Shown piece by piece: positions 21,518 through 28,300 of a DNA stretch of 64,000 bases (the first letter of the stretch is position 1; each line of letters opens with the position of its first letter). The notes below the pieces were generated by a model that had not been told where the DNA came from, did no database searches, and was given only the letters and a program-made list of their open reading frames with translations. The DNA comes from an uncultured Eubacterium sp. Its GTDB lineage: Bacteria > Bacillota > Clostridia > Lachnospirales > Lachnospiraceae. The stretch lies in assembly GCA_964436595.1 (NCBI GenBank), contig CAYTDI010000006.1, positions 16,474 to 80,473 on the forward strand, given 5' to 3'. The position numbers and the translations under genes are program-made.

Positions 21518-22157
21518 ACAAATGCTCTAACGGACGATAACAGTTTGTGTGGAATGTAATATAATATGTTAATTCCGCAATTATAACTCCGCTAAATACA
21601 TCTACAATATAGTGTTGCTTGGTAAATTGTGTAGATGCACAAACAAGCAATGCAAAAACACAGGAAAATACACGATACCATTTTGGTACACGTTTCTGTC
21701 CCCGGATTCCTATATAGCAAAACCAACTAACTAAACAATGAATAGATGGAAACAATCTGGTAGGAGCATCCATGTTGTATACAAACTGAAGTATATTCTC
21801 CCACACTCCATCTCCTGCTAAGACAGGCCGTACATTTGTAGTAGGCAGTACCAAAAAGAAAAAGCAGCAAATAAGACGGGACATAATGTCAGCCGTCACA
21901 AAACGATAACAATGTTCCTTTCCCAAGCTGGCAATCAGTATATAATTAATGCCCCAAAACAAATAGCAGCCTAAATATATGATTACAAATTCGGGTACAA
22001 CCGGAACCGCTTCATCGAAAGCAGTTGTTAAATCATAATGCTTCCAACTATCTGCCATTGGTGCAATTCCTGCATAAACAAGAAAATTCACTGCTAAACA
22101 TGTAAGCAGTGGAACAATTGCATATGCCGGAATCAATTTTTGAATCTTTTCTTTCAT
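21489..22157 (-). CDS. PAP2-superfamily (PAP2_C / sphingomyelin-synthase-like) membrane protein
   Basis: 222 aa. Motifs PSIHC...SW and HYIVDVFSG. Overlaps the next gene by 29 nt. Confidence 0.65.
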   Translation of the reverse strand: MKEKIQKLIPAYAIVPLLTCLAVNFLVYAGIAPMADSWKHYDLTTAFDEAVPVVPEFVIIYLGCYLFWGINYILIASLGKEHCYRFVTADIMSRLICCFFFLVLPTTNVRPVLAGDGVWENILQFVYNMDAPTRLFPSIHCLVSWFCYIGIRGQKRVPKWYRVFSCVFALLVCASTQFTKQHYIVDVFSGVIIAELTYYITFHTNCYRPLEHLFERIYKRGK

Positions 22158-22310
22158 CTTATGTCTCCTCTTAATTACAACTAATGAATATTATAACAGA
22201 TTCCAGAAAATAGTCTACTTAATTTTTTCTTAAAACACTATCAGTTTTTTTCTTAAAACAACACTATTTTCTCTAAGCAAAAAGAAAGCAGGCTATGACA
22301 CACTGCTTCC

Positions 22311-22481
22311 CTAAAGTAAATCAAAATTGGCTAGTCTCTGCCTAACTTCAAGAACAGAAACATCAAATCTATTCGCAAGAACTATCTCTATTTCACTCAA
22401 AGACAACCCTTTCTCGCATAACACCTTGAGAATGCTAATGAGCTCTTCTCGTGGTATCAGACCCCTTAAATTACTCTCCAC
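22311..22481 (-). CDS. Possible 56-aa helical (HTH-like?) ORF downstream of the ImmA-like gene
   Basis: Hand-found, GTG start, with GAGG 8 nt upstream. Sequence VESNLRGLIPREELISILKVLCEKGLSLSEIEIVLANRFDVSVLEVRQRLANFDLL. Followed by a hairpin (about 22283-22310). Confidence 0.3.
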   Translation of the reverse strand: MESNLRGLIPREELISILKVLCEKGLSLSEIEIVLANRFDVSVLEVRQRLANFDLL

Positions 22482-22491
22482 TCATTTTACC

Positions 22492-23031
22492 TCATATTAA
22501 TTCTGTAATTCGTTTCTCAATTACATTAACAGACACACTAAAATATTTTGATAGCATACTGACTATCTCGCCATCAGTTTCGAACACTCGTTTTAGTTGC
22601 TCATACCTTTTCATAAAACTGTCCTTGGGCACAAGTAAATTCATTGCAAAAGCATCAGCTTCCCACTCAAGTGCACCGTGTTCTCTGCCACAATCTCTGT
22701 GAGCATACAGCCCACTTAGACCTTTTTCTTTAAAGTGTAACACATAATGTCCAAGCTCGCGTGCAATGATAAACCGTTTCCACTCTAAAGACATCTTGGA
22801 GTTTACACCAAGTAATTTATCGGTCGAAACCCCTAGCACGTCCTCGGCGCCTTCTTCAACAACGATAAATCCATTATCTTCTTCGTTAAGAACTGCATTG
22901 CCAACCACAAATCCTAGTCCCTTTGCAATGCCAATTACATCAACCGGACAATCATTGACAGAATACTGTGCTGCGTTCACAATATCTTGTACACTTCTTT
23001 CAATTTTAACAGTGTTCATATTCATCCCCAT
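22492..23031 (-). CDS. ImmA/IrrE-family (DUF955) metallopeptidase-like protein with a degenerate HEXXH motif
   Basis: 179 aa. FIIARELGHYVLH plus EWEADAFAMNLLVP matches the ImmA/IrrE pattern, but the first His is Arg (codon CGC at 22759-22761). The start codon is uncertain because three ATGs lie within 5 codons. Confidence 0.7.
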   Translation of the reverse strand: MGMNMNTVKIERSVQDIVNAAQYSVNDCPVDVIGIAKGLGFVVGNAVLNEEDNGFIVVEEGAEDVLGVSTDKLLGVNSKMSLEWKRFIIARELGHYVLHFKEKGLSGLYAHRDCGREHGALEWEADAFAMNLLVPKDSFMKRYEQLKRVFETDGEIVSMLSKYFSVSVNVIEKRITELI

Positions 23032-23067
23032 AAAAATACCGTGGAGAAAAACTCCACGGCAATGATT

Positions 23068-23838
23068 CTAATTCCACTGAATACCACTTATCATATCTTG
23101 CCATGTCCAAGAAGGGTTCCAGCCTTCTGGAACACTGGAGGCACTTCCGCATCCTCCACCCCATAAACCGTAAGGAAAACTTGTACCATAGTCAACACCC
23201 TTCCAGATATTGTGCTCTACACCATCAATCATAATAGTGTAACCATCATAATCAATAAAGTCATTCCCATTGTTAATGATTTTGTAATTGGTAACGCCAC
23301 ACACTCTCAGATCGTCCTCCAAAGTCCAAGCTTTTGGCTGCTCTGGAGCTGGGGCAATTTCATCATCTGGTAAAGAATCATCACTCTGAGTGTTACTTGG
23401 AGTACTGGTAGTACTCGGTGTAGTACTAGCAGCTGGAGCAGGACTCGGACTCTTACCCTGTGTTGGAGTTGTAGATTGGCTTGGAGTTGTGTTCGTGGTT
23501 GCAGACTGTGACTGTGTTCCAGCTGTCTGCGCACTATTCTTCTCAGAAGTGGTCTTTTGTTTTCCACTGGTTGAAGATTCACTCTTCGCATTAGTTACAA
23601 CTTCTTCAACTTCACCACTCTCTTCACTCTCAGTTTCCTGTACCTCTGCGTTATCCTTGACAGATTCTTCAGTTTTGCTATCTGCTTTTGCAACAACTTT
23701 AGAATCTTTCTTACTCTCACTCTTTTCTACCTTCTTACTCTCAGCAGACTGCTCTGTTTTTACAGACTCTTTTGTACTTCCGCAAGCAGTAACACTAAAG
23801 GTCAATGCAAGTAAAGTAATAACAACTAATTTCTTCAT
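23068..23838 (-). CDS. Lipoprotein with a long Ser/Thr/Glu/Lys-rich linker and a Trp/Gly-rich C-terminal domain
   Basis: 256 aa. Lipobox VTACGS. GGAGG RBS. Has its own terminator hairpin at 23039-23059. Confidence 0.75.
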   Translation of the reverse strand: MKKLVVITLLALTFSVTACGSTKESVKTEQSAESKKVEKSESKKDSKVVAKADSKTEESVKDNAEVQETESEESGEVEEVVTNAKSESSTSGKQKTTSEKNSAQTAGTQSQSATTNTTPSQSTTPTQGKSPSPAPAASTTPSTTSTPSNTQSDDSLPDDEIAPAPEQPKAWTLEDDLRVCGVTNYKIINNGNDFIDYDGYTIMIDGVEHNIWKGVDYGTSFPYGLWGGGCGSASSVPEGWNPSWTWQDMISGIQWN

Positions 23839-23985
23839 AACTAACTACCTCCTGTTTCTCTCGTTCTTTCACTATATCGTGATTTCATCACTCAATAATT
23901 TCGCCGTTCGTCAAGAGCGAGCAAGCTCTCTCTGACTCTCTTACGCTCATTATATCATAAAATACTAATAATGATTAAAGGGTTT

Positions 23986-24741
23986 TCAAAAATCGCAAAA
24001 CTCTTTTTTAAAAACATCCAGCAAATACAATGCTGCTTGCTTTCCTCTACCATCAGGCTGTGCCTGTAAACGTTCTCTTGCAACTGAATATTCAATTTTT
24101 AAAGGATTTCTTATGCATGAAAACTGTATATCAAAACTACCCGAAAATGGTTTAGCCACACACTTATTCAAACACTCCTCTAAATTCAGCCAAGGTTCAA
24201 ATTTTTGATAGTTACTAAAGAATGCATCCCCATTATCAAAAATAGGTGCATTTCTGTATCCATTCTTTGTACGGATAACAGCCATGTTATTGAAATGTCT
24301 ATCACCATTACGCGTGATGTAATCTAAGGACAAGCAAGTGTCTACATAATCCTCAACACACAAACCAGTGTATTGCTGAATAGTGTACTTTACAAAATCA
24401 ATACGCTCACAAATATCATTCATCAATAAAATCTCATTTGTTAAAGACTTTCCTGTATTCTGATAATACACTCTTTCAAACGTTACTAGCTGTTCCTCCG
24501 CATTTAGAAAATTTTCTGAATAACAACCAGTGCGACCATTAATGATACAACGATGATACTTAACAAAATCATGATAATTTGAAGATTCTAAAAAAATGCA
24601 TGCTAACACCTCAGAATCACTTTCATAACCACAAGTATCTATCTTAAACCATTTATTTTCGTACTTGTACTTCAGTTGGCTACCTTGACTTCCACTGGAA
24701 GCATTTTCAAAAAAGGACTCATCTAAATTAAACTCTTCCAT
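23986..24741 (-). CDS. HipA-family Ser/Thr kinase core lacking the N-terminal subdomain (HipT-like)
   Basis: 251 aa. Gly-rich loop SSGSQGSQLKY (compare HipA GAQxK). Catalytic-loop-like RNGDRHFNNMAV (compare D-x-H-x-x-N). APIFDNGDAF corresponds to the Mg-binding Asp region. Confidence 0.7.
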   Translation of the reverse strand: MEEFNLDESFFENASSGSQGSQLKYKYENKWFKIDTCGYESDSEVLACIFLESSNYHDFVKYHRCIINGRTGCYSENFLNAEEQLVTFERVYYQNTGKSLTNEILLMNDICERIDFVKYTIQQYTGLCVEDYVDTCLSLDYITRNGDRHFNNMAVIRTKNGYRNAPIFDNGDAFFSNYQKFEPWLNLEECLNKCVAKPFSGSFDIQFSCIRNPLKIEYSVARERLQAQPDGRGKQAALYLLDVFKKEFCDF

Positions 24742-25078
24742 TTAAATCCACATCCTTCCAACACAAATCTTCGCCGGGAAACTTTATCCAAACCTGGTCA
24801 TCATAAGTGAAGCCATGTGAACGTTTTACAATATCGTATGGATTATAGTAATCAAGTCCCATAAGTGCCAATAACTTTTTGGTATCTGGTCTTGTTCGGT
24901 CAAAGCATCTCATTTCCAAAAAAGTAAACATCTGTGCCTTGTCTGGTACAAATCCAAAAATTTGGTATCTCTCGTCTTCCGTTAATCGCTCTGTCTCTAT
25001 AAATTCAGAATCTAAATCTAAAATAACATGCATGATTGGAACATCCCAATTCATGATTGTAAACTCATACTTGTTCAT
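24728..25078 (-). CDS. HipA N-terminal-subdomain-like small protein (HipS-like)
   Basis: 116 aa from the ATG at 25078, which has AAAGGTG 6 nt upstream. The track's GTG start at 25087 is unlikely. FLEMRCFDRTRPDTKKLLALMGLDYYNPYDIVKRSHGFTYDDQVWIKF resembles the HipA_N 'LLPEG..R..la..lGi....f.lL...G.D..Ga' segment. It overlaps the kinase gene by 14 nt. Confidence 0.55.
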   Translation of the reverse strand: MNKYEFTIMNWDVPIMHVILDLDSEFIETERLTEDERYQIFGFVPDKAQMFTFLEMRCFDRTRPDTKKLLALMGLDYYNPYDIVKRSHGFTYDDQVWIKFPGEDLCWKDVDLNGRV

Positions 25079-25152
25079 AAGGTACACCTTTCACATTCCT
25101 AAAACTTTACCTCCAGTGTGGTTTTAGGTAATTAAAACAATATATTCTTATT

Positions 25153-25245
25153 TACGCGAGTAGCGATAAAAATGCTGTGTTTGCACGAGCATTTGATGAG
25201 CACTGCGATAACTCGAGAAACTCGCAAAGCCTGTTTCTCGTAGTT
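25153..25245 (+). repeat. Copy A of a ~93-nt intergenic repeat (partner at 52900-52993, opposite strand)
   Basis: By-eye alignment shows about 75% identity overall. The 3' half is nearly identical: GATAACT..AAACTCGCAAAG..TGTTTCTC.TAGTT. Contains the hairpin CGAGAAAC-N11-GTTTCTCG. Confidence 0.7.
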
Positions 25246-25247
25246 CT

Positions 25248-25275
25248 ATTATAATAAAAATATAAAAAAATGCAA
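25248..25275 (-). promoter_or_regulatory. SigmaA-type promoter of the hipS/hipT-like operon
   Basis: TTGCAT-16 nt-TATAAT on the minus strand. Confidence 0.5.
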
Positions 25276-25312
25276 CCACCAAAAATCTTCTTTCTTCAAC
25301 CATTCATCATCA

Positions 25313-25348
25313 AAAAACCGCCACCTCTTGTTTTATCTGAGGTGACGA
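25313..25348 (-). terminator. Intrinsic terminator of the GH26 gene
   Basis: Minus strand CGTCACCTC-loop-GAGGTGGCG followed by GTTTTTT. Confidence 0.8.
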
Positions 25349-25388
25349 TTTCCTATTTACACAAGTTTCTTATAACTTTTCTACAATA

Positions 25389-28300
25389 CTATGCGTACTT
25401 TTTTCTTTTCATTGTGCCCACGCAAACCACAGTTGCCAATCCTAACAGTAATATATATCCTGCCATATTAGTAGTATCTCCTGTTTTTACCTGTGCACTT
25501 TTCTTTGCCAAATCTGCTCCATTATTTTCGCTTACGATGATGACATAGTCGGATGCATGGCTCAGCTTAAATACTGCGTTTCCATCTGTTCCAACTTTAA
25601 CAGAATCTATGTACTCCAATTTGCCTGTTGTCGGATTATAGTAGTAAAGATTTGCATAGTATCCAACTGCCGCCTGACCAAGAGGAATGATAACGGTTAC
25701 TTCTGCACCAAATTCTCCCTCATATCCTAAAGAGAACTGCATCTGGAATTTTGCCTTATCATCTCCTACTGCACTAATTACACTTTGCGGTATATTATTG
25801 GTATTTAATTCTATGGATAAATCTATGTCTTTTGCCTCTTTGATGTCTTTTCCATTAATTAACCATACCACACCGTTTTCCATTTCAAATCTTAAGGTAA
25901 CATCTTTTCCCTTTGCTGCTTCCATAATATCTTTGGAAACCTTTGTATTTTCCTTTGAAATTGGTACTGTAATCGTTTCTCCATTTTCTGCTTCTGCTAT
26001 TTTTTGCAAAATATCTTTATCACTTGTATCCTGCGGTGGATTTACCGGATTCTGCGGCGTAATCGTTGTTTCTTCTACTAAGGATTTATCTGTAATGATT
26101 AATCCGTTTTTGTCTACTTTTGTTAAATCTGTATCGTTAATCTTTACACCCTTGATTCCGTCAAAGTAAATGGTTGAATCCACATCCCATGTACCGCTAT
26201 GTCCTTCTGGAACAACAGAATTACACCATACGGCAAACTTTGTGATATTACTTGTATTTAAAGTACCACCTTTTTTCCCAACAAAGGAACTGAATGGAAC
26301 TGTTACATACTGTGCTTTCGTTCCCTTTACAAAATCAGTCAAATAAACTTCAAATTCTTCTCCTGAACCATCAGTAAGCTGAACTACCAGCTTTTGTCCG
26401 TTTCCGTCTGGCTGAACCCACATTTCTAATGCATTATATGCAGAAAAATCATTAGCTGTCAAAGAAGATTTGATTCTTCCTGTCCATACTTCATTTCCGG
26501 TTGTAGAAAGTGTATAATGGAATGCACCTCCATATGTTCCATCGTTTTTGTGGTCTGCATCCAGCAAAAATTCTGCGCTGCACCCTGCGGCTGAGTTTTC
26601 TGTATAGCTTGCGTCTAACAAACCATTACTTCCGGAATAAAAATCAAAGTTCTCAATTACATTTACAGGTGCTTTATCTTTTTCTTTTCCTAAACTTATA
26701 TTTTTCAACTGTGCAATCTGCACTCCGTCAGCAACTAATGTAATGGTCGCTACATCGGTAGCTTCTATCTGCTGAATAGTTGTCTGGTCTAATGTGGCAG
26801 TATAGATTGTTGTATCTGCTGCGCTTGGACTTGCCTGCAACACTGCTTTTTTAGCATTTGCTGTATTTTCTACTACAAACTGTACCTCTTTTGCATTTTT
26901 TACAGATGCTTTCAGCTCTGCCTTTTCTAAAATGGTTGCCATTTCAAACGGATAAATCATATAACCGTGAACGTTTGTATATTTCTCATTTGTTACATTT
27001 GATAATGTTCCAATATTATTATAGAAGTTTGTTCCATTTCCAAAAATGGAAGAACTATCATTATAAAAATCAATAAATTCGTTTATCATTTCCTGTCCAT
27101 AGTTGTCATCGTACTTATATGGAACATAGAAATTGGTGTCACTGAAGTTTGCCCATACCAAGAAATATGGCATATTGTTTTTCTTTGCAATTTCATTTAC
27201 TTTTAAATACCAGTTTGTACCGGTTGCTTCTTCTCTCACCGGATTTCCTTTTACCAAAAGTCCTTCGTTATCAGAACCATCTTTTTTCATTACTCTGACA
27301 CCACACTCTGAAATAGAAGCTATTTTTCCTTTTTTCTCAGCCAGACTAGAAACCACTTCACAGGTTTTGTCTAAGCTTTCAAAAAATGAACCATCCGAGG
27401 TTGCCGGATATGTATTGTAGTCATCATAATAATCAAAAGAAAGAATATCTACATATTCATCTCCCGGATATCTGGTTAAAAATTCTTCTTCAGAAGTCAA
27501 TGGTCCGTTTGGTGAATATACATACAACATATTATGTACACCCTGACTTTCCAGATAATCTCTGGTATAGCGATATAAACTCTTATAGGTCTCAATACTA
27601 TTAGTAGAGCCCCACCAGAACCATGAACCGGTATTCTCATGGAGTGGTCGGAAAATAACCGGAATATTATCCTGCTGTAATGCTTTTGCATAGTTTGCTA
27701 CAATATCCAGATATGCATTAAACACCTCGTTATATGCTCCACCCGGAAGAATCTGTTCTGCACAGGTATTGCTTAAATCTTTTGCTTCACCAAAGTCGCA
27801 ATTATAAAAATCATAACTTCCATCTGCATTTTTCTTAATCTTGTCATTTGTAAAGTTTGGCATATGTGTAGATAAGGTAATAATTGCTCCATTCTCTGCT
27901 GCCTTTTTACTATATGCAATAGAGTTTGCCAGAGCAGATGCTGCATCTGTTCCACCTGCCTCTGAACCGGTTAAAGCAAGAGAATCTAATCCGAAAATAC
28001 CACTTACAGAACCGGTTACATCTTCTACATCACCGAGATTAGCACTTGGATTTACAGAACGGCTTACATCGTTCTGATGTCCAAATAATACCTGATTATT
28101 TTCACTTAATGCAGAAAGATAAGTAAATAATGCCTTTGCGCTGTCATCTGCATTTTCATCTGCAATGCGAACAGTATTTTTAGAATAAGTGATATTTGCC
28201 TGTGTCCCTGCTCCCGGTGTAGATGTGATTTTCACAAAATCTTCTGTTGCATTTTTCTGAGATAATGCTAAGTTATCCATATAAATATTACCTTTAAAGC

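Follow-up and report, generated by a model that had tools for sequence, protein, structure and literature searches.

Background

Hip kinases are classic persistence toxins, and a pair of overlapping genes in an uncultured Eubacterium sp. (Lachnospiraceae) raises the question of whether such a kinase has here been divided between two proteins, and to what effect. The pair lies in a 64,000-nucleotide (nt) stretch of contig CAYTDI010000006.1 (GenBank assembly GCA_964436595.1, positions 16,474 to 80,473 of the forward strand), which was analysed as a whole and is referred to below as the window. It encodes a protein of 116 amino acids (aa) followed by one of 251 aa. A first-pass annotation, made from the sequence and its open reading frames (ORFs), had described the larger protein as a HipA-like kinase core and the smaller one as a counterpart of HipS, the small protein of the three-gene HipBST system, in an unusual arrangement without HipB.

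Here we present a comparative analysis of this pair and its relatives. It is highly likely that the locus encodes a split HipA-like kinase with a HipS-like partner. It is part of a large, unnamed family whose members are, by analogy and genomic context, probably toxin-antitoxin or phage-defence modules.

Results

Two overlapping genes on the minus strand

The upstream gene (24728..25078, minus strand) runs from an ATG, with an alternative GTG start three codons further upstream, at 25087, that would give a protein of 119 aa. Its 116-aa product appears to be a HipS-like domain, resembling N-subdomain 1 of HipA, without a DNA-binding head. The downstream gene (23986..24741, minus strand) encodes the 251-aa protein, a predicted minimal Ser/Thr kinase core of the HipA/CtkA type. 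The two genes share 14 nt (24728..24741, ATGGAAGAGTTTAA) that carry the partner's stop and the kinase's start; this overlap implies co-transcription and, probably, coupled translation, and overlapping or abutting junctions recur in related loci. An independent gene caller returned the same 116-aa and 251-aa proteins on four metagenome contigs with an identical kinase, and the gene pair, its coordinates and its overlap stand as first annotated.

The 251-aa protein is a compact kinase core

The three motifs that had been singled out in the larger protein are all present, SSGSQGSQLKY at residues 15-25, GDRHFNN at 146-152 and APIFDNGD at 165-172; they hold the Gly-rich loop (15-24), the DRHxxN segment (147-152) and the FDNG segment (168-171). 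In an alignment of 24 relatives, D147, R148, H149, N152, D169, N170 and G171 are invariant and S18, G20, K24 and K33 nearly so, and Q22 is likewise invariant or nearly invariant. Profile comparison aligned the catalytic and Mg-binding motifs of the family kinase with those of CtkA and HipT. Because the Gly-rich loop begins at residue 15, N-subdomain 1 is absent from the kinase, an absence that had been read from the sequence and is now borne out by model, Foldseek and profile alike.

An AlphaFold2 (AF2) model built on the relatives' alignment reached a predicted local distance difference test (pLDDT) score of 93.6 and a predicted template-modelling score (pTM) of 0.90, and its sole low-confidence stretch, residues 15-20, falls in the Gly-rich loop. 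When the model was compared with the PDB, Foldseek placed CtkA first (E 2.5e-8, query template-modelling score (TMq) ~0.6), followed by Legionella HipT (E 3e-4) and by HipA of E. coli and Shewanella (~1e-3 to 1e-2), over a TMq range of 0.4-0.62. The family profile, searched against PDB sequences, retrieved CtkA (3e-5) and HipT of Legionella pneumophila, HipT(Lp) (0.006); phmmer with the single kinase sequence returned noise only from the same set.

The first-pass annotation had looked to domain profiles for confirmation, which came only in part: Pfam HipA_C (PF07804) stayed below threshold (16.6 bits vs a cut-off of 30.5, E 0.0064, residues 139-170 alone), and Couple_hipA/HipA_N gave no match. 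Sub-threshold HipA_C matches also occur in 17 of the 24 kinase relatives (best E 6.9e-6), and Pfam PI3_PI4_kinase matched the catalytic segment alone (19.1 bits). NCBIfam matched neither the kinase nor the partner. With PADLOC, whose profiles were applied without curated cut-off, five PDC-M03A profiles matched the kinase over residues 66-180 (best E 2.1e-9, 35 bits), and no other PADLOC family did. A word search of a 5.8-billion-protein set gave 28 kinase homologues, none of them named. Model and profiles thus assign the 251-aa protein to the HipA superfamily, as a kinase core of the HipA/CtkA fold that lacks N-subdomain 1, and it stands nearer to CtkA and to PADLOC PDC-M03A (the HipI type) than to HipT.

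The 116-aa protein probably resembles HipS in fold and shares its gene position

The partner contains the segment FLEMR...LLALMGLDYYNPYDIV...DDQVWIKF that had been quoted as HipA_N-like. Its family is marked by the invariant residues F41, R57, R63, L70, G89 and D94 and by a nearly invariant W97. An AF2 model on the family alignment (pLDDT 87.6) has the layout b-b-b-a-a-a-b, and a Foldseek search of 350,542 PDB chains matched it over its full length only to HipA and HipS, with 108-110 columns for HipA. The TMq values were 0.59 (4pu4_B) and 0.63 (4pu5) for HipA of S. oneidensis, 0.50 for E. coli HipA (3tpb) and 0.51 for HipS of E. coli O127 (7ab3_E; target-normalised score, TMt, 0.57), and all remaining matches fell below 0.26. 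The comparison of single-protein structures that the first-pass annotation had envisaged thus came out clearly for the kinase, which has the CtkA/HipT/HipA fold, and less so for the partner, whose matches to HipA and HipS (TMq 0.50-0.63) carry E-values of 0.5-5 that are not significant alone and are reported without the aligned target residues.

PADLOC added a second line of evidence. The PDC-M03B profile, which represents partners of the HipN type, matched the window partner (E 2.5e-4, profile positions 62-112 of 245) and 24 of 54 partner relatives (best E 5e-6), always with its N-terminal half, and no other PADLOC family matched. There is no HIRAN domain in the partner, and no room for one. 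Pfam gave nothing for the window partner and only scattered chance matches for 54 partner domains, none of them to Couple_hipA/HipA_N; the partner profile searched against PDB sequences returned noise only, neither HipS nor HipA, and a word search found just four close homologues. The claim of a HipS/HipA_N-like protein was therefore not sustained at the sequence level. Nevertheless, the partner is best read, on its modelled fold, as a homologue of HipS and of HipA N-subdomain 1, a reading strengthened by the PDC-M03B matches, by natural partner-kinase fusions of 374 aa, and by a gene position and coupling like those of hipS-hipT.

Partner and kinase form a conserved and mobile pair

When one genome per GTDB species was scanned, at least 454 kinase relatives came to light, nearly all from Clostridia (Lachnospiraceae, Oscillospiraceae and Acutalibacteraceae). 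Of the best 80 of these loci, 77 encode a small-protein homologue directly upstream of the kinase gene and in the same orientation, a pairing far beyond chance. Members of the kinase family as a whole come from hundreds of Bacillota, both free-living and commensal, and lie in varied contexts. The partner profile retrieved 2,758 clusters at 90% identity, and a profile of the head-less partners at least 1,260 at 50% identity.

In four distinct 374-aa proteins (P0225, P0303, P0304 and P0305), encoded on four contigs, partner and kinase are naturally fused. Residues 2-105 form the partner domain, and behind it comes a kinase with 37% identity to that of the window, which is the domain order of HipA. 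The fusion genes at L089 1064-2188 and L090 1628-2752 have a lipoprotein-like gene as upstream neighbour, and no HTH (helix-turn-helix) gene is adjacent. A one-off frameshift artefact was considered and rejected, given four distinct sequences from four contigs and two data sources.

All five plasmid relatives that were inspected are paired, three of them in reversed order. In these three, which are on Bacillaceae plasmids (L092 3001-4207, L093 1962-3149 and L094 2001-3184), the kinase comes first and a partner of 128-135 aa follows 0-12 nt downstream, by xerS. Among these three is pBpOF4-02, a conjugative plasmid of Alkalihalophilus pseudofirmus OF4. The Bacillaceae partners are identified with certainty (hhalign probability 99.7%; hmmsearch E 1e-27 to 1e-29).

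Relatives of 68-83% identity have the same layout of a 116-aa and a ~254-aa protein and the same 14-nt overlap as the window, but those of 68% identity (116 + 254 aa) sit between rsfS and lexA, unlike the window copy. Further relatives are found in unrelated contexts, on plasmids (one of them conjugative) and on human-gut phage-like contigs, and this variety of settings indicates that the two genes move as a unit. In the 68%-identity relatives L084-L088, a 404-407-aa protein without a Pfam match is encoded 33 nt upstream of the partner (e.g. L087 4754-5968); it does not occur in the window.

Most partners carry a DNA-binding head

The partner is usually longer than in the window, and the 116-aa protein is equivalent to its conserved C-terminal domain. 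Among the 77 upstream partners, the N-terminal head is HTH_7, a resolvase-type HTH, in 35; an AbrB/MazE-like segment (weak in Pfam, E 0.008) in 14; a coiled-coil with a domain without Pfam match in 9; and an Xre-type HTH_3 in 3. About 14 of the 77 are head-less like that of the window. HTH_7 is also dominant among the precomputed Pfam labels of a larger partner set. Since about 80% of the relatives' partners are headed, the window represents a head-less minority form, and the sequences suggest that the HipB-like function is in this family mostly fused to the HipS-like module. What had been said about the lack of HipB is correct for this locus, with no HTH gene before the pair and no HipB gene within the window, but it is not a trait of the family.

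Head-less partners of 104-140 aa recur at L001, L009, L013, L014, L020, L022, L023, L036, L038 and L040, and they are also found on a S. salivarius plasmid and on Bacillaceae plasmids. The coiled-coil type (L008, L010, L015-L019, L024 and L028) has an N-terminal segment of 115-143 aa, with a conserved K-x-I-x-G-x-x-Y-Y-Y-x-Q-W stretch behind the coiled-coil, that looks like an uncharacterised head domain. At L014 5022-5672, a complete serine recombinase (Resolvase N-terminal domain plus HTH_7) is encoded with a 4-nt overlap with the head-less partner gene. This arrangement suggests where the HTH_7 heads may have come from, and a recombinase of this type is possibly what the entry "HipP, gamma-delta-resolvase-like" of the 2021 survey by Gerdes, Baerentsen and Brodersen (PMC8262856) denotes.

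An Xre-headed member is also present in a cultured type strain, Lachnospira (Eubacterium) eligens ATCC 27750. It lies on a 627-kb replicon (L091 2414-3777) and consists of the 178-aa partner WP_012740875.1, annotated as "helix-turn-helix domain-containing protein", and the 269-aa kinase WP_041688992.1, annotated as "hypothetical protein".

Relationship to described Hip systems

A literature search gave no named description of this kinase-partner family. The closest described systems are hipJS and hipIN, then hipBST, then hipBA, with CtkA as the nearest solved kinase structure. Both hipJS and hipIN are two-gene modules of a kinase and a HipS-type protein without HipB (PMC8262856), and hipIN corresponds to the PADLOC candidate PDC-M03, a pair of HipA and a HIRAN protein (PMC13245101). 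Like them, the window pair is bicistronic, has a short Hip kinase that lacks N-subdomain 1 and bears its Gly-rich loop near the N terminus, has a probable HipS-like domain in the partner and no separate HipB. The composition fits hipJS, and the Bacillaceae plasmid relatives even have its kinase-then-partner order, but in the window and in 77 of 80 Clostridial loci the partner is upstream rather than downstream. As to hipIN, PDC-M03A is matched by the kinase, but the 116-aa partner has no HIRAN domain. The kinase is also shorter, 251 aa vs 279-321 aa reported for HipG, HipI, HipJ and HipM (PMC8262856).

The first-pass annotation had regarded a two-gene form without HipB as a possibly distinct variant. 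Given that hipJS and hipIN were already described without HipB, the arrangement is less unusual than was implied; what does fall outside the ten organisations of the 2021 survey is the partner-first layout with an HTH_7, Xre or AbrB-like head fused to the partner (PMC8262856). Proteobacteria made up 70% of that survey and Firmicutes 5%, and its seed E-value thresholds (PMC8262856) would be beyond the reach of this family.

The comparison with HipBST, known from E. coli O127:H6 and from Legionella pneumophila (Lpg2368-2370), has fared in a similarly mixed way. As had been proposed, HipA is split, and the gene of a small HipS-type protein directly precedes, and is coupled to, that of a core kinase that lacks N-subdomain 1. 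The modelled folds match HipT(Lp) (7vkb, 8ezr) and, with weak statistics, HipS (7ab3_E). On the other hand, the kinase is closer to CtkA and PDC-M03A than to HipT, and it has neither the N-terminal mini-domain nor the S-psi-S loop motif of HipT, carrying instead SGSQGSQ with a near-invariant Ser18. Moreover, the window has two genes and no third HTH gene, whereas relatives fuse the DNA-binding part to the HipS-like protein, and the partner is not significantly similar in sequence to either HipS or Couple_hipA. HipA itself (hipBA of E. coli K-12 and S. oneidensis) shares the kinase fold, the catalytic and Mg-binding motifs and the succession of an N-subdomain-1-like module and a core, seen here in gene order and in the 374-aa fusions; it differs in being one polypeptide of 440 aa, compared with ~370 aa for the whole system here, and in its association with HipB, and against its Pfam profiles the present proteins score below threshold (HipA_C) or not at all (HipA_N/Couple_hipA). 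CtkA (JHP0940) of Helicobacter pylori is likewise a compact HipA-like kinase on a mobile element and the best match in both structure and PDB profile searches, but it has 325 aa and only 16-17% identity to the window kinase, and we know of no described HipS-like partner for it. It is a pro-inflammatory Ser/Thr kinase encoded on an integrative and conjugative element, and its reported action on host cells depends on the Tfs3 type IV secretion system (PMC5536186).

The locus and its surroundings in the window

Upstream of the pair, a 1,318-aa mannanase gene of glycoside hydrolase family 26 (GH26) ends at 25389, and its terminator hairpin with T-run (25315..25351, minus strand) forms the 5' boundary of the module. 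The remainder of the 310-nt non-coding stretch that follows the terminated GH26 gene holds, as had been noted, a promoter-like element and a hairpin. The element, TTGCAT-16 nt-TATAAT (25248..25275, minus strand), was recognised by eye, which is weak evidence, and was missed by a consensus scan because its -35 hexamer matches just 3/6. Just downstream of the putative -10 is a perfect 8-bp inverted repeat, CGAGAAAC-11-GTTTCTCG (25214..25240, minus strand), which is either the first hairpin of the 5' untranslated region (UTR) or else an operator.

RNA folding predicts a structured 5' UTR of ~165 nt (25079..25245, minus strand) with a folding energy of -46.9 kcal/mol (z -3.6), which none of 200 shuffled sequences equalled. 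Its last hairpin, an inverted repeat at 25089-25137, spans the ribosome-binding region. An Rfam scan of 22000-26000 gave no match, and the leader is thus not a known riboswitch or leader; nor is the structure conserved in the 68%-identity relatives, in which the upstream gap is 33 nt.

The neighbours of the pair in the window (the GH26 mannanase, PPDK, PAP2, an LPG-synthase-like protein, Psd and an aminoacyl-tRNA synthetase) are housekeeping genes, and there is no anomaly of G+C content (GC) at the pair itself. A prophage or defence-island setting was rejected for these two reasons. Directly downstream of the kinase, three minus-strand ORFs occupy 22311-23838, with a GC of 0.40-0.42 vs 0.34-0.37 in the flanks: a Ser/Thr/Pro-rich lipoprotein (23068-23838), an ORF like the ImmA/IrrE M78 peptidases (22492-23031; Pfam E 2e-14, PADLOC capP E 1e-16) without an adjacent Xre partner, and a 56-aa ORF (22311-22481). 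Either a mobile element or a protease-controlled regulatory pair may have left this stretch behind as a remnant.

Discussion

Proposed function

We propose that the pair is a split HipA forming a self-contained two-gene module, in which the upstream 116-aa protein would play the part of N-subdomain 1, as HipS does, and the downstream 251-aa protein that of the minimal catalytic core. Both proteins would be made from one transcript by coupled translation. HipS neutralises HipT with its Trp65 wedged beside the Gly-rich loop (PMC10627512), and by analogy we infer that the small protein docks by the Gly-rich loop of the kinase and holds it inactive. Were the partner lost, displaced or outnumbered, be it through phage infection, loss of the element or stress, the freed kinase would phosphorylate an essential host protein and arrest growth; the most plausible target would be a translation factor, e.g. 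an aminoacyl-tRNA synthetase. In the headed relatives, the DNA-binding head of the partner would autoregulate the operon.

The case for a toxin-antitoxin module is made by the antitoxin-first coupled operon, the interchangeable heads, the near-invariant Ser by the Gly-rich loop and the mobility of the pair. Type II antitoxins typically have a conserved domain joined to exchangeable DNA-binding heads. Also, recent work has validated kinases of the HipA family in phage defence (PMC13092281), which makes a toxin-antitoxin or abortive-infection role plausible here. Taking all its steps together, we judge this mechanism somewhat better than an even bet.

A more far-reaching version seems possible but doubtful to us. 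It would see in the window pair the smallest version of a Hip-like family that is large, extends across the Bacillota and was missed by surveys, and in which the HipS-like module is a universal kinase-binding element, freely recombined with heads (HTH_7, Xre, AbrB-like, coiled-coil) and placed on either side of the kinase or fused to it; the head-less form, regulated through its structured 5' UTR or by sensing of phage proteins, would then serve as an anti-phage abortive-infection kinase in gut Lachnospiraceae.

Alternative explanations

Several observations weigh against the toxin-antitoxin mechanism. The window copy has no DNA-binding head, so that autoregulation is not evident, and it stands among housekeeping genes rather than in a defence island. 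The HipS-like assignment of the partner draws on fold and context: beside the silence of Pfam and the Foldseek E-values of 0.5-5, hhalign of the partner profile against an alignment of 12 HipA N-subdomains (Gerdes Table S1) gave a probability of 1% (E 0.05), which is not significant, although the weak alignment falls on topologically equivalent helices of the partner and HipA N-subdomain 1. Furthermore, no obvious neutraliser is found beside the natural fusions, and two kinases with intact catalytic motifs (L005 5974-6753 and L012 5992-6738) have no partner on either side. Solo kinases and fusions fit a kinase that is not lethal alone, or else a partner built into the enzyme as it is in HipA.

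They leave considerable scope for a rival reading, in which the kinase depends on the small protein as a structural or activating subunit, the holoenzyme being a regulated, non-toxic signalling or housekeeping kinase that the heads tether or regulate. The four independent contigs with single-chain partner-kinase fusions, the intact motifs of the solo kinases and the housekeeping surroundings of the window locus would all suit such an enzyme, as would the fact that in HipA the homologous subdomain is integral to the active kinase (PMC10627512). We nevertheless hold it to be unlikely, in that the partner is encoded first and is probably coupled in translation, its fusion to interchangeable Xre, HTH_7 and AbrB-like heads is the standard type II antitoxin layout, the cassette, like selfish or defence modules, hops between plasmids, phage-like contigs and otherwise unrelated contexts, and HipS, the only free-standing homologue that has been studied experimentally, is an inhibitor. 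The window copy might instead be a decaying, non-functional remnant of a module of HTH-partner and kinase that has lost its head, as the N-terminal head of some 80% of related partners and the adjoining apparent mobile-element remnant, with its orphan ImmA-like gene in a higher-GC stretch, could suggest. This we find improbable: head-less partners of 104-140 aa recur across many lineages and plasmids, and the window copy, like relatives of 68-83% identity, has both ORFs intact and all invariant residues present. Least credible of all, and very improbable in our estimate, is the reading of the kinase as a CtkA-like effector that works on host or competitor cells rather than in the cell that makes it, with the small protein as its chaperone or immunity factor. 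H. pylori CtkA is indeed the closest solved structure and PDB sequence match, but that likeness, at 16-17% identity, is one of shared fold; the sequence has no signal peptide, no secretion system lies nearby, and the family extends across hundreds of free-living or commensal Bacillota in varied contexts.

Conclusions

The pair in the window, which we continue to read as a probable toxin-antitoxin or phage-defence module, brings into view a divergent and very compact Hip-like family that is abundant in gut Clostridia and lies below Pfam thresholds; in RefSeq its members bear only the labels "hypothetical protein" and "helix-turn-helix domain-containing protein". This one family displays every state of the HipA split: the two parts occur as separate genes in either order, the HipS-like module may bear a fused HipB-like head, and both parts may form a single chain. 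It thereby provides a natural series for distinguishing the cases in which N-subdomain 1 belongs to the kinase structurally from those in which it acts as its inhibitor, and, as the cultured strain L. eligens ATCC 27750 carries a member, the question is directly testable.

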